A stretch of 64,000 nucleotides of DNA from an uncultured Acidobacteriota bacterium (lineage in GTDB: Bacteria; Acidobacteriota; Thermoanaerobaculia; UBA5066), in contig CAWIUK010000002.1 of NCBI GenBank assembly GCA_963839295.1, positions 186,330-250,329 on the forward strand, written 5' to 3'. The notes beneath the pieces were generated by a model. That model did no database searches. It was not told the origin of the DNA and worked only from the letters and a program-made list of their open reading frames with translations. Below, one piece after another: positions 34,894 through 48,997 of the stretch. Position 1 is the first letter of the stretch, and each line of letters opens with the position of its first letter. Made by a program: the position numbers and the translations under genes.

Positions 34894-36531
34894 ATGACTC
34901 TGTCCCGGATCCCCTTCCACCGGCGGCTCGGGTTCAAGATCACCGCAACCGCGGCCGCGGCGATCCTCGTGCCCGTCGCGATCGTCGCGGCCGTGACGAT
35001 CCGCGCCCAGCACGAAGAGCTCGTCGCGCGGGCCCAGGGGAGCGCCGCGATCCTGTCCGAGACCGTCCGGAGCGCGACGCACGACTTCATGCTCAAGGAC
35101 CAGCGGGAGGACGCGTACCGGATCGTCGAGATCGTCGGGCACGAGAGCCTCCGCAAGGACAGCTCGATCGAGAGCGTGCGGATCTTCAACAAGCAGGGCG
35201 CGACGGTGTACTCGACGGACCGTTCGGAGATCGGGCGCGTCGCCGACAAGCGCGCGGACGTCTGCGCGCCGTGTCACGGCGGGGCGGGCGCGCCCGTCAC
35301 GAACCCGGACCCGGAGACGCGCAGCCGGATCACGACGTCGGGCGGCCACCGGATCCTCTCGTTCGTGACGCCGATCTACAACGAAGCCGACTGCGCCTCC
35401 TCCGGGTGCCACGCCTCCCCGAAGGACCAGCGCGTCCTCGGCCTCCTCGACGTCGCGCTCTCCCTCAAGGAGGTCGACGACCGCCGCGCCGCCGCGACCT
35501 GGCGGATCGTGGGCCTCTCGCTCCTCGCGCTCGTCGTCCTCACGGCGCTCGTGACCGCGATCGTCCGCGTGCTCGTGCTCCGCCCCGTCTCGGACATGCT
35601 CGCGGCGACCCGGGACCTCGCCCACGGCGGCACGCCCGGACCCCTCAGGGTCCGCTCGCACGACGAGCTCGGAATGCTCGCGGGCTCGTTCAACGAGATG
35701 AGCGCCTACCTGAGGTACGCGCGCGACCGCCTCGAGGCGGCGGCGGGCGACCTCGAGCGCCAGGTCGAGGAGCGGACGGCGGCCCTCCGGCAGGCGCAGG
35801 ACGCGCTCGCCCAGAGCGAGAAACTCGCCTCGCTCGGGACGCTCTCCGCCTCGATCGCGCACGAGATCAACAACCCGCTCGCCGGGATCCTCACGTTCGC
35901 GCGCCTCATGTCGCGCACGCTCGAGTCCGGCGAGGTCGACGACGCCGCGCGCGCCGCGTGCCTGAAGAACCTCGGCCTCATCCAGCGCGAGACCGAGCGC
36001 TGCACGCGGATCGTGCGGAGCCTCCTCGACTTCGCGCGCGCACGGCCGATCGAGCTCAACGACGTGGACGCGACGTCCGCGCTCGACGAGGCGGTCTCCC
36101 TGACGCAGCACAAGCTCCAGCTGCAGCAGGTTGTCGTGGCGAAGAACGTCGACGGTCCGGCCGTCGTCCGGGGGGACTACGGCCAGCTCCGCCAGGTCTT
36201 CGTGAACCTGATCCTGAACGCGTGCGACGCGATGCCGAAGGGCGGGACGCTCTCCGTCACGTCCCGGAAGGTCGACTCCGGACGCGCCGTCGAGATCGAG
36301 TTCGCGGACACGGGCACGGGCATCGCGCCCGAGCACCTCTCGCGCATTTTCGACCCCTTCTTCACGACGAAAGAGATGGGAACGGGCCTCGGGCTCTCCG
36401 TCGTCTACGGCGTCGTCGAGAAGCACGGCGGGTCCATGAAGGCGCAGAGCCGCCTCGGCGAAGGGACCACGATGACGGTGCGGCTGCCGCTCGCCGGGGA
36501 GGCGGCGGCGCCGGCGGGCGCCGCCGCGTGA
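34894..36531 (+). CDS. Sensor histidine kinase (HAMP-HisKA-HATPase) with two c-type heme motifs in the periplasmic loop
   Basis: TM1 around residues 15-37 and TM2 around 202-228. CAPCH (residues 124-128) and CASSGCH (167-173) lie between them. H-box SIAHEINNPLAG, N-box NLILNACDAM, G-boxes DTGTGI and GTGLGLS. Confidence 0.9.
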   Translation: MTLSRIPFHRRLGFKITATAAAAILVPVAIVAAVTIRAQHEELVARAQGSAAILSETVRSATHDFMLKDQREDAYRIVEIVGHESLRKDSSIESVRIFNKQGATVYSTDRSEIGRVADKRADVCAPCHGGAGAPVTNPDPETRSRITTSGGHRILSFVTPIYNEADCASSGCHASPKDQRVLGLLDVALSLKEVDDRRAAATWRIVGLSLLALVVLTALVTAIVRVLVLRPVSDMLAATRDLAHGGTPGPLRVRSHDELGMLAGSFNEMSAYLRYARDRLEAAAGDLERQVEERTAALRQAQDALAQSEKLASLGTLSASIAHEINNPLAGILTFARLMSRTLESGEVDDAARAACLKNLGLIQRETERCTRIVRSLLDFARARPIELNDVDATSALDEAVSLTQHKLQLQQVVVAKNVDGPAVVRGDYGQLRQVFVNLILNACDAMPKGGTLSVTSRKVDSGRAVEIEFADTGTGIAPEHLSRIFDPFFTTKEMGTGLGLSVVYGVVEKHGGSMKAQSRLGEGTTMTVRLPLAGEAAAPAGAAA

Positions 36532-37071
36532 ACGAGGTCCTCCTCCTGTGGATCGGGCAGAAGGAACCCGCCCCGGACCTCCTCGACGGCGTCCACCGGA
36601 GCGTCGCGCGCGAGTTCGAGGTGCCCGTGCGCCTGCGCGTCTCGCCGGACCGGCCCGGGGACGCCTTCGACCCGCGCCGGGGGCAGCACTCCTCCACGCG
36701 GATCCTCGCGTGGCTGAAGGACCGGCACGACGGGGCGCGCCGGGTCCTCGGCGTCACGGACGCCGACCTGTTCATCCCGATCCTGACCTTCGTGTTCGGC
36801 GAGGCGCAGCTCGGCGGCCGCGCGGCCGTCGTCTCGACGGCCCGCCTCGGCGACACGCCGCTGATCCCCGGCGAGGCGGCGCGCATCGCCCTGCGCCTCC
36901 AGAAGGAAGCCGTTCACGAGCTCGGACACACCTTCGGCCTCCTGCACTGCGCCGACGCGCGCTGCGCGATGGCGCGCTCGCCCAGCCTGAGGCACGTCGA
37001 CGCGAAGTCCCCCGCCCTCTGCCGCACCTGCCGCGCGCGAACCCGCGAACTCTCGGAAAACGGAGACGTCC

Positions 37072-38466
<1,395 letters not shown>

Positions 38467-38586: not shown

Positions 38587-38602
38587 TGGCCCGGTCCGTG
38601 CA
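38587..38602 (+). promoter_or_regulatory. Sigma-54 (-24/-12) promoter
   Basis: TGGCCCGGTCCGTGCA compared with consensus TGGCACG-N4-TTGCW. The GG and GC dinucleotides have the correct spacing. Located directly downstream of a sigma-54 activator gene. Confidence 0.55.
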
Positions 38603-38616
38603 ACCCCTTCGTCGCC

Positions 38617-38874
38617 ATGTTGAACGACACCACGACCGCCTGCCCCTGGCTGAAGCAAGTGGTGATGCTCTATTGCGACGCCTGCCCGACCAAGAAGATG
38701 GTCCCGAAAGACCAGCTCGTGTCGCAGGGTCCGTGCCTCACGGGTTCCTTTGCGGAGTGCGCCATGTACCGCGAGATGGTCAAGAGGATCGAGGCAGGCG
38801 CCGCCGCCGCTGATGTTGCCGTTGACACGGAGGCGAGCCGCAAGGCCGCTTCCGGGAGGGAGGTCCCGTCATGA
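38617..38874 (+). CDS. Small cytoplasmic Cys-rich protein of unknown function
   Basis: 85 aa. Cys at positions 9, 20, 23, 40 and 48 (CPW..YCDAC..PC..EC). No signal peptide. First gene after the -24/-12 element, with no SD. Confidence 0.6.
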   Translation: MLNDTTTACPWLKQVVMLYCDACPTKKMVPKDQLVSQGPCLTGSFAECAMYREMVKRIEAGAAAADVAVDTEASRKAASGREVPS

Positions 38875-38954
38875 TCGCCACCGTCCCGCTCGCCGTCCTC
38901 GCCGTCCTGACTCTTCTTGCGATGGCCCATCACAGCCGGGTCCGCCCCGCGTAA
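38871..38954 (+). CDS. 27-aa single-TM micro-ORF (MIATVPLAVLAVLTLLAMAHHSRVRPA)
   Basis: ATGA overlap with the upstream stop. GGGAGGGAGG ends 5 nt upstream of the ATG. Mostly G/C third positions. Its TAA lies inside the next gene's AAGGAG. Confidence 0.4.
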   Translation: MIATVPLAVLAVLTLLAMAHHSRVRPA

Positions 38955-38967
38955 GGAGAGAGTGACG

Positions 38968-39873
38968 ATGAACCTGAACCGCCGCAACCTGTTCCAGATC
39001 GCCGGCGCCGCGGGCGCGGCCACGATCGCGGGCCGCGCCCTCTCGTCGGCGACGACGCGCAGCGCCGCCAAAGACGCCGTCGGCGTCCTCGTGGACACGA
39101 CGCGCTGCGTCGGCTGCCGCGCCTGCGAAGCCGCGTGCTCCGAGGCGAATGGCCTCGCCGGGCCCGAGAAGCCGGGCGACGACACCGTGTTCGCGTCGCG
39201 CCGCCGGACCTCCCCCACGAGCTTCACGGTCGTGAACAAGTCGGCCGAGAAGAGCCCGAGCGGCGAGGACCGTTACGCGAAGACGCAGTGCATGCACTGC
39301 GTGACCCCCGCGTGCGCGTCCGGCTGCGTCGTCAAGGCGCTCGAGAAGACGGCCGCCGGGCCGGTCGTGTACCACGAGGACCGTTGCCTCGGCTGCCGCT
39401 ACTGCATGATCGCGTGCCCCTTCGGCGTTCCGAAGTACGAGTACACGAAGGCGGCCCCCCTCGTGCGCAAATGCACGTTCTGCGCGGCGCGCCAGGAAAA
39501 GGGCCTGCCGCCCGCCTGCACCGACGCGTGCCCCTCGGGCGCGCTCACGTTCGGAAAGCGGGCCGACCTCCTCGAGGAGGCCAGGACCCGCATTTACCAG
39601 AACCCCGGCAAGTACGTCCACGAGATCTACGGAGAGGACGAAGCCGGCGGCACGAGCTGGCTGTACATCTCGGACGTCTCCGCGGCGAGCCTCAACCTCC
39701 CGCAGGACATCGTGAAGAAACCCTACCCCGAGATGGCGGACGGCGCGCTCTCGGCCGTCCCGTTCATCGTGACCTTGTGGCCGCCCCTCCTCATGGGCCT
39801 CTACACCTTCAGCAAGCGCCGCGACGACGTCGCCGGACGCGAAAACGGACAGAAGGGAGCCGGCCATGAGTGA
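38968..39873 (+). CDS. Tat-exported 4x[4Fe-4S] ferredoxin-type subunit (HybA/DsrO/NrfC-like) with C-terminal TM anchor
   Basis: Trimmed to ATG 38968 (AAGGAGAG upstream). NRRNLFQIAG twin-arginine signal. CVGCRACEAAC, CMHCVTPACASGC, CLGCRYCMIACP and CTFC..CTDACP clusters. C-terminal AVPFIVTLWPPLLMGLYTF. Confidence 0.88.
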   Translation: MNLNRRNLFQIAGAAGAATIAGRALSSATTRSAAKDAVGVLVDTTRCVGCRACEAACSEANGLAGPEKPGDDTVFASRRRTSPTSFTVVNKSAEKSPSGEDRYAKTQCMHCVTPACASGCVVKALEKTAAGPVVYHEDRCLGCRYCMIACPFGVPKYEYTKAAPLVRKCTFCAARQEKGLPPACTDACPSGALTFGKRADLLEEARTRIYQNPGKYVHEIYGEDEAGGTSWLYISDVSAASLNLPQDIVKKPYPEMADGALSAVPFIVTLWPPLLMGLYTFSKRRDDVAGRENGQKGAGHE

Positions 39874-41089
39874 GACCTTCGACCGCGTCGCGGTTTCGAC
39901 CCTCGTTCGCGAAAAGGTCCTCCTCGGGATGGAACCGAAGGCATACGCGAAGAGCCTGCTGACGAAGACGAACGCGATCTTCGCGGCGATCCTCCTCGTC
40001 GGCCTCCCGACGATCGCCTACCGGTTCTGGAAGGGCATGGGCGCGGTGAGCAACCTCTCCCAGACGAACCCGTGGGGCCTCTGGGTCGCGTTCGACGTCG
40101 TCTGCGGCGTCGCGCTGGCCGCCGGCGGCTACACGGTGGCCGCGGCCGTCTACCTGTTCGGTCAGAAGCAGTTCGCCCCGGTCCTGAGGCCCGCGATCCT
40201 CACCGGCTTCCTCGGCTACCTCTTCGTCCTCGTCGGCCTCGTCGTCGACCTCGGCCAGCCCTGGCGGCTCCCCTACCAGTTCTTCCTCACGCCCGGGACG
40301 ACCGCCGTCATGTACGAGGTCGGCTGGTGCGTGTTCCTGTACCTGATGGTCCTCGCCCTCGAGTTCCTCCCGGCGGCGCTCGAGTGGCTCGGGATGACGA
40401 AGGTCCGGCGTTTCATGAGCGCGATCTCGATCGCGATCATCGTCCTCGGCGTCACGCTCTCGACCCTCCACCAGTCCTCGCTCGGCGCCTTCTTCCTCAT
40501 GTCGCCCGGCAAGCTCCACCCCCTGTGGTACTCGCCGTTCCTCCCGATCTTCTTCTTCGTGTCGTCGATCGCGGCGGGCATCGGCATGGTCATCTTCGAG
40601 AGCTCGGTCTCGCACCGGGCGTTCCAGGACCAGCTCGACCCCGAAGCGCACGTCGACATGGACGCCCTCCAGCTCGGGCTCGCCAAGGGCGGCGCGGTCG
40701 TCCTCTTCGCCTACTTCTTCGTCCGCCTCCAGGGCCTCGTCGCGAGCGGCCGGTGGGACCTCCTCCTGACCGGCTGGGGCGCGTGGTACGCCCTCGAGAT
40801 GCTCGGCTTCGTCCTGCTGCCGTCGCTCCTCTTCGCCTTCGCGGTGAGGACGCAGAGCGCGCGGCTCGCGCGCGCCGCCGGCGTCATGACGGTCCTCGGC
40901 GTCGTCCTCAACCGCTTCAACGTCGCGCTGATCGCGTTCAACTGGAACGTGCCCGACCGGTACGTTCCCGCGCTCGGCGAGATCGTCATCTCGGTCACGA
41001 TCGTCACGCTCGGCGTCCTCGTGTTCCGCTGGATCGTCAACCGCATGCCGGTGCTCCACGAGCATCCGGAATGGCGCGGCGTCCACTGA
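39866..41089 (+). CDS. NrfD/PsrC-family (HybB/DsrP-like) quinone-interacting membrane subunit
   Basis: 407 aa, about 10 TM helices. NPWGLWVAFDVVCGVALAAGGY motif. 8-nt overlap with the upstream gene. Confidence 0.88.
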   Translation: MSETFDRVAVSTLVREKVLLGMEPKAYAKSLLTKTNAIFAAILLVGLPTIAYRFWKGMGAVSNLSQTNPWGLWVAFDVVCGVALAAGGYTVAAAVYLFGQKQFAPVLRPAILTGFLGYLFVLVGLVVDLGQPWRLPYQFFLTPGTTAVMYEVGWCVFLYLMVLALEFLPAALEWLGMTKVRRFMSAISIAIIVLGVTLSTLHQSSLGAFFLMSPGKLHPLWYSPFLPIFFFVSSIAAGIGMVIFESSVSHRAFQDQLDPEAHVDMDALQLGLAKGGAVVLFAYFFVRLQGLVASGRWDLLLTGWGAWYALEMLGFVLLPSLLFAFAVRTQSARLARAAGVMTVLGVVLNRFNVALIAFNWNVPDRYVPALGEIVISVTIVTLGVLVFRWIVNRMPVLHEHPEWRGVH

Positions 41090-41108: not shown

Positions 41109-41774
41109 ATGCACGCCAACGACGTCCTCAGCCCTCACGCCACCAAGGCCATCGAGTACCTGCTCGCGGTCTCGTACCTCCTGCTCTTCATCCCCTTCTG
41201 GCGCTTCGTGAACGGCGCGTCGGTCGCGCAGGCCTTCGCGACGGGCTGGTTCCAGGTCCCGGAAAACGTCCACCTGCACCGCGGCCACTCCTGGGCGAAG
41301 ACGTTCGGCGGCGCGGTCGCGGTCGGCCTCGACGACTTCGCCCACAAGCTGATCGGCCCGCTCGACGCCGTCCAGCTCCCCGCGGTCGGCACGTCGCTCC
41401 GCCAGGGCCAGAAGGCCTTCACGGTCGTCGCCGACGGCAGGCCCTTCGACGTCGTCTCGCCCGTCGACGGGAACGTCGTCGCGGTGAACGAGGTCGTCCG
41501 CGCGCACCCCGCCGACGCGGTCCGCGACCCCTACGGCACGGGCTGGCTCCTGAAGGTCGAGCCCCGCTGGCTGACCGCGAACATCAAGAACCTCGTCTCG
41601 GGCGATGCCGCCCGCCGCTTCCTCGACGCGGCCGCCGAAGTCCTCGCGGGCCGTATGAGCCCCGAGCTCGGCGTCGTCCTCCAGGACGGCGGCACGCCGG
41701 TCCACGGGATCGCCCGCGAGATCGACCCGGAGCACTGGGACTCGCTCGTCCGCACGTCCCTCCGGGGCGAGTGA
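41109..41774 (+). CDS. Membrane-anchored GcvH-fold (barrel-sandwich) protein lacking the lipoyl-lysine
   Basis: N-terminal TM AIEYLLAVSYLLLFIPFWRFV. GHSWAK..VGLDDFAHKLIGP..LPAVG..VVSPVDGNVVAVN..DPYGTGWLLKV resembles GcvH. Confidence 0.7.
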   Translation: MHANDVLSPHATKAIEYLLAVSYLLLFIPFWRFVNGASVAQAFATGWFQVPENVHLHRGHSWAKTFGGAVAVGLDDFAHKLIGPLDAVQLPAVGTSLRQGQKAFTVVADGRPFDVVSPVDGNVVAVNEVVRAHPADAVRDPYGTGWLLKVEPRWLTANIKNLVSGDAARRFLDAAAEVLAGRMSPELGVVLQDGGTPVHGIAREIDPEHWDSLVRTSLRGE

Positions 41775-41784
41775 GGAGGACGCC

Positions 41785-42132
41785 ATGAACACCCTCCTCC
41801 GCTTCCTCGCGGCGACGCTCCTCCTCGCCCTTTCCACGACGCTCGACGCGGGGGCGCTGCCGAACCTCCCGAAGGACCTGGCGCTCCCGCAGGGCGACGG
41901 CAGCCCGGGCGTCGTCACCTTCCGCCACGACGCGCACGTCGACGCCTCGCGGCCCGACTGCACGACCTGCCACCCGAAACTCTTCCCCATCGTCAAACGC
42001 ACCGCCTCTTCGGCCGCCCCCGCCGCGATCCGCCACGCCGACATGGAAAAGGGCAAGAGCTGCGGCTCCTGCCACGACGGCAAGAGCGCCCACGGCCTCG
42101 ACGACTGCGGGACGTGCCACCAGGCCAAGTGA
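41785..42132 (+). CDS. Periplasmic triheme c-type cytochrome (c7/c3-like)
   Basis: Signal peptide plus CTTCH, CGSCH and CGTCH in a 115-aa protein. Confidence 0.85.
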   Translation: MNTLLRFLAATLLLALSTTLDAGALPNLPKDLALPQGDGSPGVVTFRHDAHVDASRPDCTTCHPKLFPIVKRTASSAAPAAIRHADMEKGKSCGSCHDGKSAHGLDDCGTCHQAK

Positions 42133-42141
42133 GGTGACGTC

Positions 42142-42840
42142 ATGACGCCTCTCGAATTCCTCCAGCTCGCCGGCATCTTCCTCGCGGGTCTCGTCGTCCG
42201 GATCCTCGCCTTCACCCTCGTGATCGCGGTCTGCACGCTCCCGATCATCGCCGCCTGGGCGCTCTGGCGAGCGTGGCAGATGATGCGCGACCGGCGCATC
42301 GGCCTCGTCGACATCGCGGGGCTCGAGTTCGCCGAGGCGCACCATTACGCGCCCGGCCACACGTGGCTCGCGCGGAAGAGCCGCGGCACGGTCCGCGTCG
42401 GCCTCGACGAGATCGCGGGCCGGCTCCTCCATGCGCCGACGAGCGTCTCGCTTCCGCGGCCGGGGACCGTCCTCGCCGCCGGCCTCCCCGCCGCCACCGT
42501 GAACTGCGGCGGCCGCTCGGCCACGCTCTCCGCCCCGGTGTCGGGCACCGTCGTCGCGATCAACCCCAGGGTCCTGCGGGACCCCGCGCTCCTCGAGGAG
42601 TCGCGCTACCGCAACGGCTGGCTCTTCTCGATGAAACCCGCGACGGCTTCGTTCCTCACGCTCCCGACCGGCGCCGCCGCGCGCTCCTGGTTCCAGGACG
42701 AGACGGCGCGCTTCTCGCACGCGCTCGAGACCGAGCTCGGCCTTCTTGCGGCCGACGGCGGCGAGCTCGTCGTCGAGGCGCCCGCGCTGCTGTCCGAGGA
42801 GAAGTGGCAGCGTCTCGTCTCGGAGTTCCTGAAGGGCTGA
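42142..42840 (+). CDS. Membrane-anchored GcvH-fold protein lacking the lipoyl-lysine (paralog 2)
   Basis: Hydrophobic N-terminus (residues about 6-43), then RAWQMMRDRR. GHTWLA..VGLDEIAGRLL..LPRPG..LSAPVSGTVVAIN..YRNGWLFSMKP. Confidence 0.7.
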   Translation: MTPLEFLQLAGIFLAGLVVRILAFTLVIAVCTLPIIAAWALWRAWQMMRDRRIGLVDIAGLEFAEAHHYAPGHTWLARKSRGTVRVGLDEIAGRLLHAPTSVSLPRPGTVLAAGLPAATVNCGGRSATLSAPVSGTVVAINPRVLRDPALLEESRYRNGWLFSMKPATASFLTLPTGAAARSWFQDETARFSHALETELGLLAADGGELVVEAPALLSEEKWQRLVSEFLKG

Positions 42841-42847
42841 GCCGGCG

Positions 42848-43306
42848 TCAGCGCTTGCCGAACAGCTTGTCGAAGGCCGAGCGCGCCCCGTCGGGCGTGT
42901 CGGCGGCCTTCGTGCCCGTGAGGTCCATGCTCACGACGGGCGCGTAGAGCGCGCAGTCGTTCGCCTTCGACTTCGCGGCGATCGGCGCGGGGATCTCCTG
43001 CCGGCACTGCCAGCGCGCGGCGCCGTCGAAGTGGCGGCACTGGCTGCAGGCATGGAGCGCGGCCCCGCACTTCCGGCAGACCGCGGCCGCCGTCACCTCG
43101 GGATCGTTCTTCTCGCCGCAGGCCTTGCAGCGGAAGACCTCGTCCCGGTGGCGGTCGGCGCCGCGGCCGCGGGGGGCGCCCTCGAGGCGCGCCGGGCGGT
43201 CGGAAAAGAACCCGCCGCCCCCGCCGCCCGAGCCTCCCGTGCCGCCGGTCCGGGCGCCGTCCTGATAGCCCTTCGAGCGGTACTTGCGATCCGACATCTG
43301 CTTCAT
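42848..43306 (-). CDS. Gly-rich, zinc-ribbon-like Cys-rich protein of unknown function
   Basis: Trimmed to ATG 43306 (or 43297): MKQMSDRKYRSKGYQD, a GGSGGGGGG tract, then CKACG..CRKCG..CSQC..C. Confidence 0.6.
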   Translation of the reverse strand: MKQMSDRKYRSKGYQDGARTGGTGGSGGGGGGFFSDRPARLEGAPRGRGADRHRDEVFRCKACGEKNDPEVTAAAVCRKCGAALHACSQCRHFDGAARWQCRQEIPAPIAAKSKANDCALYAPVVSMDLTGTKAADTPDGARSAFDKLFGKR

Positions 43307-43351
43307 TCTACGGTCCCGGGGCCGGGCCGTAGAATGCGCGCCAGGGACTGA

Positions 43352-43714
43352 ATGAGATTCCTTCTTCGAATCCTCGTGAACGCGGCCGCTCTGTGGGTCG
43401 CATCGCAGTTCCTGCCGGGGATCCACGCGGGCGGGCCCGGCTCGTTCCTCGCCGTTGCCGTCGTCTTCGGCATCGTGAACGCCTTCATTCGCCCGCTGCT
43501 CAAGCTCCTGAGCTGCCCGGTCATCCTCCTGACGCTCGGTCTCTTCACTCTCGTGATCAACGCGCTCATGCTCATGCTCACGGCATGGGCCTCCCGGCTG
43601 CTCGGAATCGACTTCACGGTCGACGCGTTCTGGCCGTCGGCCTTTCTCGGCGCGCTGATCGTCTCCATCGTCTCGACGGTCCTGTCCTGGTTCATCCCGG
43701 ACAAGGCCGCGTGA
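43352..43714 (+). CDS. Phage-holin-family-IV-like small membrane protein (YvlD/DUF360 type)
   Basis: MRFLLRILVNAAALWVASQFLPGI..FGIVNAFIRPLLKLLSCPVILLTLGLFTLVINALML. Confidence 0.8.
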   Translation: MRFLLRILVNAAALWVASQFLPGIHAGGPGSFLAVAVVFGIVNAFIRPLLKLLSCPVILLTLGLFTLVINALMLMLTAWASRLLGIDFTVDAFWPSAFLGALIVSIVSTVLSWFIPDKAA

Positions 43715-47048: not shown

Positions 47049-47088
47049 GGCCCCCCTCCGAAACGACGGAGGGGGGCCTTTTTCTTTT
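47049..47088 (+). terminator. Rho-independent terminator/attenuator in the 5' leader of the aromatic biosynthesis gene
   Basis: GGCCCCCCTCCG-AAACGA-CGGAGGGGGGCC followed by TTTTTCTTTT. There is no upstream plus-strand gene to terminate. Confidence 0.7.
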
Positions 47089-47107
47089 GTCCCCAAGGAG
47101 GCTTCCC

Positions 47108-48997
47108 ATGGACGGATCGACCCCCGACAACGCTGTCCCCGACGTCCCGACGCCGCGCGCGGGCTACCAGGGCGAGCCGGGCTCGTTTTCCGCGCGCGCG
47201 GCCGCGCGCGCCGGCCGCCCGCTCGCGTACGCGACGTTCGACCGGCTCCTGCGGGCGCTCCTCGGAGGCGAGGTGGACGTCGCGGTCCTCCCCGCCGCGA
47301 CGCACGGCGCGGGCCCCGTCGTCGAGCCGCTGGAGGCGCTCGCCCGGGCCCTCGAGGCCGGCGCCGTCCCGCTCGAGGTGCGCGAGGAGATCGCCGTCCC
47401 GGTCCGCCTCGTCCTCGCGGCCCCTTCCGGCGTCGCCGAGGAGGACGTGAAGGAAATCCATTCCCAGCCGCCGGTCCTGCGGCAGTGCGCGCGCCTCCTC
47501 GCGCGCCTCGACGCCGTGCCCGTCGAGACGCACGACACGGCTTTCGCGGCCCGGCGCGTCGCCGAGCTCGGCGGAGCGCGCGCGGCCGTGTGCTCCGAGG
47601 AGGCCGCGCTGGAAGCCGGTCTCGTCGTCCTCGAGGAGGACGTGTCGGACGTGAAGCCGAACGCGACGCGCTTCTGGACGGTCGCGCGCCGCTCGGACGC
47701 CGAGCCGACCGTCCGGGCGCTCTTCTTCGGCGGCGCCCGCCTCGCCTCCGCGCTGCACGACGCGGGCGCCGAAATCCTGATGCTGGCGGGCCGTCCCGGC
47801 GCGGCGGTGGGCGGGTTCGCGACGGTCCCCGCCGCGGCGCTCGGGAAAGCCGCGGGCCTCGCGGCGAAGGCGGGCGAGACGCTCGTGTGGCTCGGCCCCG
47901 CGCCCGACCACGTGCCTCCGCCGCGCCTCAGGGACGCTCCGCGGGCGACGGAGGTCCGCGCGGCCACCGTGGTCACGGCGGGGACGTTCACGGTCGGAGG
48001 CGGACGGCGGGCGGTCATCGCGGGCCCGTGCGCGGTCGAGTCGCCGGAGCAGGTGATGCGTCTCGCGAAAGCCGTCGCGCGCGCCGGAGCGACCGCGCTC
48101 CGCGGAGGCGTCTTCAAGCCCCGCACGTCGCCGTCCGCGTTCCAGGGCCACGGCCTCGAAGCGCTCGGCTGGCTGAGGGACGCGGGCGACGCGGTGGGAC
48201 TGCCGATCGTCACGGAGGTCATGGCGCCCGCGCAGGTCGAGCCCGTCGCGCGCCTCGCGGACGTCCTCCAGATCGGCGCGCGCAACTGTCAGAACTACGA
48301 CCTCCTGAAGGAGGCCGGCGGCGCGGGGCGCCCCGTGATGCTGAAGCGCGGCTTCGGGACGACGGTCGAGGAGTGGCTCAGCGCCGCCGAGTACATCCTC
48401 GCCGCGGGCTGCCGCGACGTCCTCCTGTGCGAGCGCGGAATCCGGACGTTCGAGCGCGCGACGCGCGGCACGCTCGACCTCGGTGGTCTCCTCGCGGCGC
48501 GCTCCCTCACGCACCTGCCGCTCCTCGCGGACCCCTCGCACGCCGCGGGCCGGAAGGAACTCGTGCCGGGCCTCGCCCGCGCCGCGTGGGGCGCCGGCGT
48601 CGACGGCCTCATGATCGAGGTCCACGACGCGCCTGAGTCCGCGCTCTGCGACGGGCCGCAGGCGCTCCTGCCGGACGACCTCGAGATGCTTCTCGACGAG
48701 TTCGGCCTCCTGCCGGGGCGCACGGGCTCGGTCGAACGCGTGCGGCGCGCGATCGACTCCGTGGACTCCTCCATCGCCGCGCTCGCGGCCCGGAGGCTCG
48801 AGCTCTGCCGCCGCGTCGCGGAGGTCAAGAAGTCGACGGGGAGGCCCGTCCGCGACGAGGCGCGCGAGGCGACCGTGCGCGCGCGCTTCGCCGAGAGCCT
48901 CGGGAAGGACGCGACGAAGGCCGCGGGCCTCGCGGACGCGCTCATCGCCCTCGGTCTCGAGGCCGAGGGATGGGAGGGGGACGTCACTCCCCGATGA
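47108..48997 (+). CDS. Tri-domain fusion: prephenate dehydratase - DAHP synthase (type I-beta) - chorismate mutase (AroQ)
   Basis: ATG 47108 (AAGGAGG upstream). PDT domain [23 protein letters not shown] domain [30 protein letters not shown] domain [29 protein letters not shown]. Confidence 0.9.

Follow-up and report, generated by a model that had tools for sequence, protein, structure and literature searches.

The H-protein of the glycine cleavage system (GcvH; PF01597, TIGR00527) is a soluble protein of about 130 residues, encoded with gcvT and gcvP, whose barrel-sandwich fold is marked by the motifs GHxW, VGxDD, LPxxG, PVxGxVxxVN and PYxxGW. LbpA of the sHdr sulfur-oxidation system shows that this fold can be recruited to a non-glycine redox system, in heterodisulfide-reductase/Hmc-type biology; LbpA is a soluble protein that has retained the lysine and is lipoylated, and its gene accompanies hdr-like and lipoate-ligase genes (PMC6067878). 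Here we describe two GcvH-like proteins encoded in a 64,000-nucleotide stretch of DNA (the window; G+C about 72%) from an uncultured Acidobacteriota bacterium of the Thermoanaerobaculia (contig CAWIUK010000002.1, positions 186,330 to 250,329). They resemble GcvH in fold and motifs. Unlike it, they are anchored in the membrane, are 221 and 232 residues long, lack the lipoyl-lysine, carry a C-terminal helical extension of about 65 residues with a QDGG...W signature, and are encoded beside the respiratory genes hmcB, hmcC and a cytochrome gene. None of the traits of LbpA itself (the lysine, lipoylation, solubility and such gene neighbours) applies to the two proteins.

The respiratory part of the locus has two groups of described relatives. 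HmcABCDEF of Desulfovibrio vulgaris has homologous HmcB and HmcC subunits, and the gene of a single-helix protein directly follows hmcC; this protein, HmcD (DVU_0533, 5.8 kDa), is the fourth protein of the Hmc complex (PMC10920352) and, unlike GcvH-like protein 1, has no soluble domain. Unlike Hmc, the operon in the window has no gene for the 16-heme HmcA, the cytochrome b HmcE or the CCG-domain HmcF; a triheme c7 cytochrome, its only one, replaces HmcA, and two GcvH-like proteins, a small protein with four conserved cysteines (the 4-Cys protein) and an M54 peptidase are added. Geobacter Cbc4 (CbcSTU), Shewanella SirCD, NrfBCD and PsrBC likewise combine a small multiheme cytochrome, an iron-sulfur (FeS) protein exported by the twin-arginine translocation (Tat) pathway and a heme-less NrfD-type subunit, and the accounts of such modules consulted here mention no cytoplasmic GcvH-fold subunit (PMC13591261, PMC11434368). 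What appears to be new here is a module of the Hmc/NrfD type to which a novel class of subunits on the cytoplasmic side would belong, and our search of the full-text literature found no description of GcvH-like proteins beside NrfD/Hmc genes. Lipoyl/H-protein-type hybrid folds devoid of a modified lysine exist in the N-terminal domains of RnfC and NqrA and in eukaryotic ABITRAM/FAM206A; in Rnf and Nqr the lysine-less domain belongs to a subunit located on the cytoplasmic face of a membrane-bound respiratory complex. These domains belong to other families, have no anchoring helix of their own and are not known to be associated with NrfD-type subunits. By analogy, those of RnfC and NqrA may be the nearest functional precedents.

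H-protein folds that lack the lipoyl-lysine

The two proteins, representatives of what we call class A and class B, have the following features:

41109-41774, + strand: GcvH-like protein 1 (class A, 221 residues), identified by Pfam GCV_H, phmmer, an AlphaFold2 model and Foldseek
41148-41207, + strand: single transmembrane anchor of protein 1 (residues 14-33), preceded by a tail outside the cytoplasm (N-out) and followed by a short linker
41268-41564, + strand: GcvH barrel of protein 1 (residues 54-152), from the AlphaFold2 model
41433-41441, + strand: hairpin tip D109-G110-R111 of protein 1, with G110 at the lipoyl-lysine position, from phmmer and the AlphaFold2 model
41571-41771, + strand: family-specific helical extension of protein 1, with QDGG...W
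42142-42840, + strand: GcvH-like protein 2 (class B, 232 residues), identified by Pfam GCV_H and a gapless alignment to E. coli GcvH
42151-42267, + strand: hydrophobic anchor of protein 2 (39 residues, 4-42)
42268-42297, + strand: basic cluster RAWQMMRDRR of protein 2, directly after the hydrophobic stretch
42346-42651, + strand: GcvH domain of protein 2 (residues 69-170), from Pfam
42505-42516, + strand: hairpin tip C122-G123-G124-R125 of protein 2, with G124 at the lipoyl-lysine position, from the gapless alignment to E. coli GcvH (3a7a)
42652-42837, + strand: C-terminal extension of protein 2, of the same type as that of protein 1, with ADGG...W

Pfam assigns both proteins to GCV_H (PF01597, gathering cut-off 22.2 bits) with high confidence, at 2.1e-17 and 63.6 bits over residues 59-172 of protein 1 and at 1.2e-17 and 64.4 bits over residues 69-170 of protein 2. 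The scaffold motifs are present in both (GHSW/GHTW, VGLD, LPAVG/LPRPG, PVDGNVVAVN/PVSGTVVAIN and YGTGWL/YRNGWL in proteins 1/2). The fold of protein 1 was assigned by structure modelling and Foldseek, and that of protein 2 by sequence. The AlphaFold2 model of protein 1 (predicted local distance difference test, pLDDT, 87; predicted template modelling score 0.75) has a helix at residues 9-36, the barrel and a helical C-terminal extension. It matches 1onl, 3ab9 and 1htp with template modelling scores of 0.91-0.92, root mean square deviations of 1.5-1.6 Å and 25-29% identity. All top Foldseek matches are H-proteins, and no membrane-complex subunit is among them. The two proteins are 31% identical to each other and have the C-terminal extension in common. 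This bears out the initial annotation of the locus, made from the DNA letters alone, which had described two paralogous H-protein-fold proteins, each fused to an N-terminal hydrophobic anchor.

The same annotation had placed a glycine at the lipoyl-lysine position of both proteins by counting residues, and alignment agrees. In gapless phmmer alignments Gly110 of protein 1 (ADGRP) falls on the lipoyl-lysine of 1onl, and Lys64 of E. coli GcvH is matched by Gly124 (NCGGRS) of protein 2; the model of protein 1 puts Gly110 in the turn D109-G110 of a hairpin formed by strands 102-108 and 111-117, with no lysine at its tip. Protein 1 has lysines at positions 13, 64, 80, 102, 149 and 160, the nearest of which, K102, is 8 residues out of register, as had been noted. 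Protein 2 was said to have no lysine within about 25 residues; its lysines (79, 165, 221 and 231) all lie more than 40 residues from the tip. Its Cys122, also pointed out then, falls on the serine two positions before the lipoyl-lysine of E. coli GcvH. The loss extends to the family: the lysine column of 118 close class-A homologues holds G (86), S (11), D (9), E (5) or A (5) and never K, and K occupies this column in only about six of 170 GcvH-like open reading frames (ORFs) of 85 related loci. A hypervariable hairpin tip had been expected and this idea was abandoned, close class-A orthologues having a tip of average variability and diversity appearing only across the wider set.

Both proteins score below the cut-offs of the curated equivalog/subfamily models of functional H-proteins. 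TIGR00527 gives 59.1 and 50.9 bits for proteins 1 and 2 against a cut-off of 115.85, about half, and NF002270 gives 73.3 and 65.7 against 117. No glycine-cleavage genes (gcvT/P) and no sHdr genes are found among the flanking genes examined. The proteins are almost certainly not lipoate carriers, in agreement with the early proposal that they are neither glycine-cleavage nor LbpA-type carriers. That proposal went on to a swinging-arm-like or a sulfur/metal-handling function. The first finds a loose echo in the variable Ala/Pro/Arg-rich linker between anchor and barrel of many orthologues, but there is no group on the arm to swing. The second is not supported by the tip of the domain, which has no conserved Cys or His: a Cys two residues before the tip is found in most acidobacterial class-B orthologues, and Cys122 is Gly in those of Anaeromyxobacter.

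Membrane anchors and orientation

The anchor of protein 1 (best 17-residue Kyte-Doolittle window 1.94) belongs to the best-conserved part of class-A proteins, with a mean column entropy of 0.85 versus 1.44 for the barrel. K13, E16, Y17, A20, L24, L26, F27, P29, F30, W31 and R32 are invariant or nearly so, and the family alignment has 14 invariant columns in all. A passive anchor would not be so conserved, and we therefore infer that the helix makes a fixed helix-helix contact in the membrane. The linker that follows varies in length, with a median of 21 and up to 46 residues; in protein 1 of the window it has about 14.

The candidate for the origin of this helix is HmcD. A Desulfovibrio-type hmc locus (L086) was recovered from a metagenome by an exact DNA probe, the published DVU0533 quantitative PCR primer (PMC4265775). 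Its HmcD has 47 residues and starts 15 nt after hmcC, while protein 1 of the window starts 19 nt after hmcC. The HmcD helix and the class-A anchor can be aligned in one gapless block with the pattern K..Y.L....LL......W.F..G; hhalign of the class-A anchor against the single HmcD sequence covers 26 gapless columns at 35% identity (P=0.0024, probability only 12%). Composition-preserving shuffles reached the real HMMER score of HmcD against the class-A anchor in 26 of 2000 cases. Precomputed Pfam results of JGI list a weak match to PF28260 'DVU_0533' at the N-terminus of a single protein, P0106, among 120 listed homologues. Taken together, the alignment and the identical gene slot are suggestive of an HmcD-like anchor in class A without being proof. 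An earlier pairing of YVGYWLF with AVGYLLLF, derived from translated DVU0533 primers, was dropped when the real HmcD gene was found to align better in another register.

As a separate observation, the class-B anchor motif GIFLAGLVVRI (consensus iFvvGLlvRl) resembles VFFGGLLARVI of helix 1 of the Desulfovibrio-type HmcE (L086, 12320-13000). This likeness over 11 residues, equalled in 14 of 2000 shuffles, was not used: it is post hoc and short, and the architectures differ. It is kept only as a lead.

The barrels lie in the cytoplasm, on the opposite side of the membrane from the FeS and cytochrome subunits. Charges follow the positive-inside rule: over 119 sequences the N-terminal tail is net negative (113 positive and 168 negative residues) and the linker net positive (402 and 144), and in protein 2 four Arg directly follow the anchor. 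Decisive are the natural fusions P0316 and P0340, in which a signal peptide and a tetraheme cytochrome c come before the class-A anchor and the GcvH-like domain: maturation of c-type cytochromes takes place in the periplasm and a single helix separates the cytochrome from the barrel, so that the orientation in these fusions must be N-out/C-in. In P0288 a basic and then a signal-like hydrophobic segment separates the GcvH-like domain from a c7 domain, and relatives fused to receiver or signal-less Cys domains agree with a cytoplasmic barrel. An electron-transfer role of the barrels is unlikely, because they lie opposite the FeS clusters and hemes and HmcC has no hemes to carry electrons across.

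The Hmc-type module and its conserved cassette

The GcvH-like pair closes a tight operon of six genes (4-Cys, HmcB, HmcC, GcvH-like 1, c7, GcvH-like 2), whose last three gaps are of 19, 10 and 9 nt with a purine run like a ribosome-binding site at each. Both GcvH-like ORFs, on the + strand, have coding-type G+C contents at third codon positions of 0.97 and 0.94, respectively. The genes and elements around them are:

34894-36531, + strand: sensor histidine kinase (Pfam HAMP, HisKA, HATPase_c), with two c-heme motifs in a periplasmic loop (residues 41-197)
36528-37109, + strand: archaemetzincin-like (M54) zinc peptidase without signal peptide (Pfam PF07998, 1.4e-18)
37072-38466, + strand: sigma-54-dependent response regulator with receiver (REC), AAA+ and HTH_8 domains (Pfam Sigma54_activat, 5e-70)
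38587-38601, + strand: sigma-54 -24/-12 promoter element TGGCCCGGTCCGTGC, with GG-N10-GC spacing
38617-38874, + strand: small cytoplasmic 4-Cys protein with invariant C9, P10, C20, P24, K27, C40 and C48 and no Pfam or NCBIfam match
38917-39873, + strand: HmcB/HybA-type Tat-exported 4x[4Fe-4S] protein with a C-terminal tail anchor (NCBIfam HmcB 1.3e-106; Pfam Fer4_11, TAT_signal)
39866-41089, + strand: HmcC/HybB-type integral membrane subunit of the NrfD family (NCBIfam HmcC 2.5e-154; Pfam NrfD)
41785-42132, + strand: periplasmic triheme c7-type cytochrome of 115 residues with a signal peptide and three CxxCH (Pfam Cytochrome_C7 1.6e-14; NCBIfam nanowire_3heme 7e-19)

HmcB and HmcC of the window are 44.5% and, over the full length, 51% identical to the Desulfovibrio-type proteins of L086. 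Their best NCBIfam matches, at 356 bits for HmcB (cut-off 420) and 514 bits for HmcC (cut-off 550), are both just under the equivalog cut-offs. The redox core is related to Hmc B/C and is not a strict Hmc complex because HmcA, HmcE and HmcF are absent. Pfam and NCBIfam recognise a cytochrome, a Tat-exported 4Fe-4S protein and an NrfD-family subunit encoded together, as in modules of the Cbc4/SirCD/Nrf/Psr type. By analogy with these, HmcB, HmcC and c7 would make up an oxidoreductase of the Cbc4/SirCD/Hmc type that works between quinone and a periplasmic cytochrome (PMC13591261, PMC11434368).

The family is widespread. A word-index search returned 796 relatives of the GcvH-like protein, and when 1.84 billion representatives were scanned in full with a HMMER profile of the family, 898 clusters at 50% identity passed E<=1e-30. 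A scan of one genome per species gave 192 loci, 80 of which were kept, and gene context was compared on 85 loci. The kept loci come from Thermoanaerobaculia (89% identical, the clade of the window), Vicinamibacteria, cultured Anaeromyxobacter species, Polyangia, Thermodesulfobacteriota, Gemmatimonadota, Bacteroidota, Calditrichia and Eisenbacteria; with a family member in a metagenome-assembled genome (MAG) of Nitrospinota, at least eight phyla are represented. Several sources label family members 'glycine cleavage system H protein'.

About 90% of the anchored copies adjoin HmcB/HmcC genes. Class-A genes lie directly 3' of hmcC in 70 of 86 cases and directly 5' of hmcB-hmcC in five, while in others only a cytochrome gene intervenes; the suggestion that the proteins are attached to a membrane complex is supported by this arrangement. 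By tblastn across the 85 loci, the genes of the Acidobacteriota and Myxococcota cassettes run from kinase, peptidase and sigma-54 regulator through 4-Cys, HmcB and HmcC to GcvH-like A, c7 and GcvH-like B. In other phyla the same parts are rearranged, with up to four or five GcvH-like paralogues. No hdr-like or lipoate-ligase genes are found in the cassette across these loci. This widespread cassette of ten elements around an Hmc-type module, counting the sigma-54 promoter, was previously undescribed.

Its regulatory part is conserved as well. The motifs CAPCH (CxxCH, 35263-35277) and CASSGCH (Cx4CH, 35392-35412) of the kinase loop recur as a CxxCH and Cx4CH pair in the kinases of L070 and L085, and the protein looks like a c-heme-based periplasmic sensor of redox state or of a ligand. 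The kinase is found in 38 and the sigma-54 regulator in 37 of the 46 related loci with full flanks. The peptidase carries HELGHTFGLLHC...C...CxxC and its gene overlaps both the kinase and the sigma-54 regulator genes; it is conserved in 53 of the 85 loci, in all phyla sampled, and is therefore counted as a part of the cassette. Of 33 loci, 32 have TGGC-N8-TGC no more than 70 nt 5' of the 4-Cys gene, where 0.011 would be expected. The element of the window is only 16 nt before the annotated ATG of this gene, leaving almost no leader, the distance in the loci being usually 25-45 nt.

The 4-Cys family (consensus CP[YFW]L-x8-C-x3-P-xKK-x2-P-x9-C-x7-C) has 615 relatives, all labelled 'hypothetical'. 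Soluble GcvH-like domains are fused to tandem 4-Cys copies in L058, L062, L067, L070 (968-1984), L071 and L082, which are of Thermodesulfobacteriota type, and these fusions nominate the 4-Cys protein as a partner of the GcvH-like proteins. A second Cys motif, CxWMxAGxxSYKLCx5CxxC, is fused to the GcvH-like domain in P0387, L076 and L085. The domain with its extension is fused to REC in P0328 and in L085 (2781-3635 and 3693-4877); REC-GcvH fusions lie within cassettes of the same type also in L079. In P0274 the domain is duplicated in tandem. Such a fusion pattern is that of a protein-interaction module.

The distant relative P0317 (1391 residues) has a weak match to RnfC_N and carries three Lys-less GcvH-like domains ahead of a GlcD-like FAD oxidase, a 4Fe-4S dicluster and a pair of CCG domains of the HdrD kind. 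It is another unexplained use of a cofactor-less H-protein fold in a redox enzyme.

Directly 3' of the operon are a Gly/Arg-rich protein with weak zinc-ribbon matches (42848-43426, - strand) and a 120-residue protein of the 'phage holin 4_2' family with four transmembrane segments (43352-43714, + strand), both found also 3' of the operon in the close relative L001. Further on, an ORF of 636 residues (47087-48997, + strand) is a three-way fusion of aromatic amino-acid enzymes, namely prephenate dehydratase, DAHP synthase and chorismate mutase.

Role of the anchored domains

We favour, as the reading that is somewhat probable overall, the hypothesis that the GcvH-like pair are cofactor-less cytoplasmic docking subunits of an Hmc-like quinone:cytochrome module. 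That they are anchored subunits of this module on its cytoplasmic side is likely; a specific docking role of the barrels is more tentative, nearly an even matter. HmcB, the NrfD-type quinone-interacting HmcC and triheme c7 would exchange electrons between the quinone pool and periplasmic carriers. Protein 1 would be held on HmcC by its conserved single transmembrane helix, packing as HmcD is presumed to do, this helix being the counterpart of HmcD by gene position and probably by descent, and protein 2 would be held by its own conserved hydrophobic anchor. Both barrels and their C-terminal helical extensions would then lie in the cytoplasm opposite the redox cofactors and, having no lipoate, would take no part in electron or group transfer. 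The two barrels, perhaps paired through the common extension, could form a docking platform under the membrane subunit; its likely docking partners are the 4-Cys protein and, in lineages other than this one, forms of the fold that carry a receiver domain. The adjacent heme-sensor kinase and sigma-54 regulator would switch the operon on from the sigma-54 promoter.

Several points weigh against this reading. Binding to HmcC is deduced from synteny and the conservation of the anchor, and 'adaptor' is the default label for a conserved domain that has no cofactor. The proposed homology to HmcD is based on one sequence of 47 residues with weak statistics (P about 0.002-0.01), the anchor of protein 2 fits one or two spans, and the AlphaFold2 model of the 4-Cys protein is poor (pLDDT 62). 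Orphan copies with no hmcBC in their flanks exist, only in Anaeromyxobacter-type genomes (e.g. L035 and L046), and because of them the GcvH-like domain can exist outside the hmcBC cluster; their flanks (a LysR regulator, an aminotransferase) give no functional lead. Finally, a Lys is present one position after the tip in 65 of 118 close class-A orthologues (55%), and the soluble relatives of L067, L070 and L071 have a Lys at the canonical column (ETEKGT), so that some family members may be modified.

These last lysines are what speaks for a cryptic carrier, in which a covalent group would sit on the Lys after the tip or on Cys122 and swing between sites; one example would be transport of a persulfide or a metal in concert with the 4-Cys protein. 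The Cys before the tip of most acidobacterial class-B orthologues, the canonical Lys of the three soluble Cys-fused relatives, the presence of a Cys-rich partner and the flexible linkers would all suit it. The position after the tip, however, is Arg in both proteins of the window and accepts R (24), Q (14), E, T and H in other close class-A orthologues, and therefore no tip residue could serve as a modification site across the family. The replacement of Cys122 in Anaeromyxobacter and a cassette devoid of lipoate/biotin ligase and sulfur-relay genes count against it too. Lipoyl-domain mutagenesis by Wallis and Perham (1994) reportedly established that lipoylating enzymes need the Lys at the exact turn position. 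We consider a cryptic carrier improbable. The notion that the two genes are decaying, functionless gcvH paralogues has the loss of the catalytic lysine for it and is refuted by conservation: about 900 clusters (50% identity) spread over eight phyla or more, the 14 invariant columns, intact ORFs with coding-type codon bias and the maintained synteny leave it next to no credit. A domain that docks the c7 cytochrome or the FeS subunit in the periplasm, the topology implied by the initial picture of attachment to the membrane complex, has for it the position of the c7 gene between the two GcvH-like genes and the periplasmic location of the other soluble parts of the module. It is largely refuted and very improbable, because the charge bias is opposite, the tetraheme cytochrome is N-terminal to the anchor in P0316 and P0340, relatives are fused to REC and signal-less Cys domains, and there is no signal peptidase site.

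Two further proposals keep the domains in the cytoplasm. As an assembly factor outside the mature complex, the tethered domains and the 4-Cys protein would chaperone HmcB, its Tat signal peptide or HmcC while cofactors are inserted and the protein is exported, which is compatible with cytoplasmic domains encoded beside a Tat-exported FeS subunit and with the 4-Cys gene directly 5' of hmcB. Known Tat proofreading chaperones are soluble and of unrelated fold, however, the conserved membrane helix argues for a permanent intramembrane partner, and the cytochrome-anchor-GcvH fusions tie the anchor to a mature redox subunit; this role has a little less to recommend it than a cryptic carrier. A signalling adaptor, in which the tethered domains would inform the cytoplasm of the state that the Hmc-like module is in, is unlikely but deserves the most attention among the alternatives. 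The domains could bind or sequester the sigma-54 activator or REC proteins, or the M54 peptidase could clip the linker to release them. REC-GcvH fusions within the same cassettes (L085, L079, P0328), the kinase, sigma-54 regulator and peptidase that travel with them, the conserved sigma-54 promoter and the variable, probably flexible linker speak for it. Neither cleavage nor regulator binding is evidenced, the linker of about 14 residues in protein 1 of the window is short for this purpose, and regulators commonly adjoin the operons that they control without touching the products. Signalling also overlaps with the docking platform, being itself a form of protein docking.

A bolder view, to which we grant only a small chance, is that the cassette is an unrecognised transmembrane device for redox sensing or under redox control and not just another quinol dehydrogenase. 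Cofactor-less H-protein folds, whether tethered by HmcD-like or other anchors, REC-fused or 4-Cys-fused, may then assemble under the NrfD subunit as dedicated cytoplasmic signalling or adaptor domains, and may couple the state of periplasmic FeS centres, cytochromes and quinones to partners in the cytoplasm, for which the sigma-54 activator, the 4-Cys protein and the archaemetzincin-like protease are candidates.

Anaerobic respiration relies centrally on NrfD-type complexes (Hmc, Qrc, Dsr, Psr, Nrf, Cbc4, ACIII). Little is understood of their cytoplasmic face and of small subunits such as HmcD. The present family, about 900 clusters with a folded cytoplasmic domain on an HmcD-like helix, offers a handle on this face, and the presence of the cassette in cultured Anaeromyxobacter strains makes the hypothesis of docking subunits testable. 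Taken at its word, the label 'glycine cleavage system H protein' would lead to too many predictions of glycine cleavage, of the reductive glycine pathway or of lipoate metabolism for MAGs from soil and sediment, those of Acidobacteriota and Myxococcota included. With this family there is one more clear example of a carrier fold of the swinging-arm kind that has been put to use without the arm.

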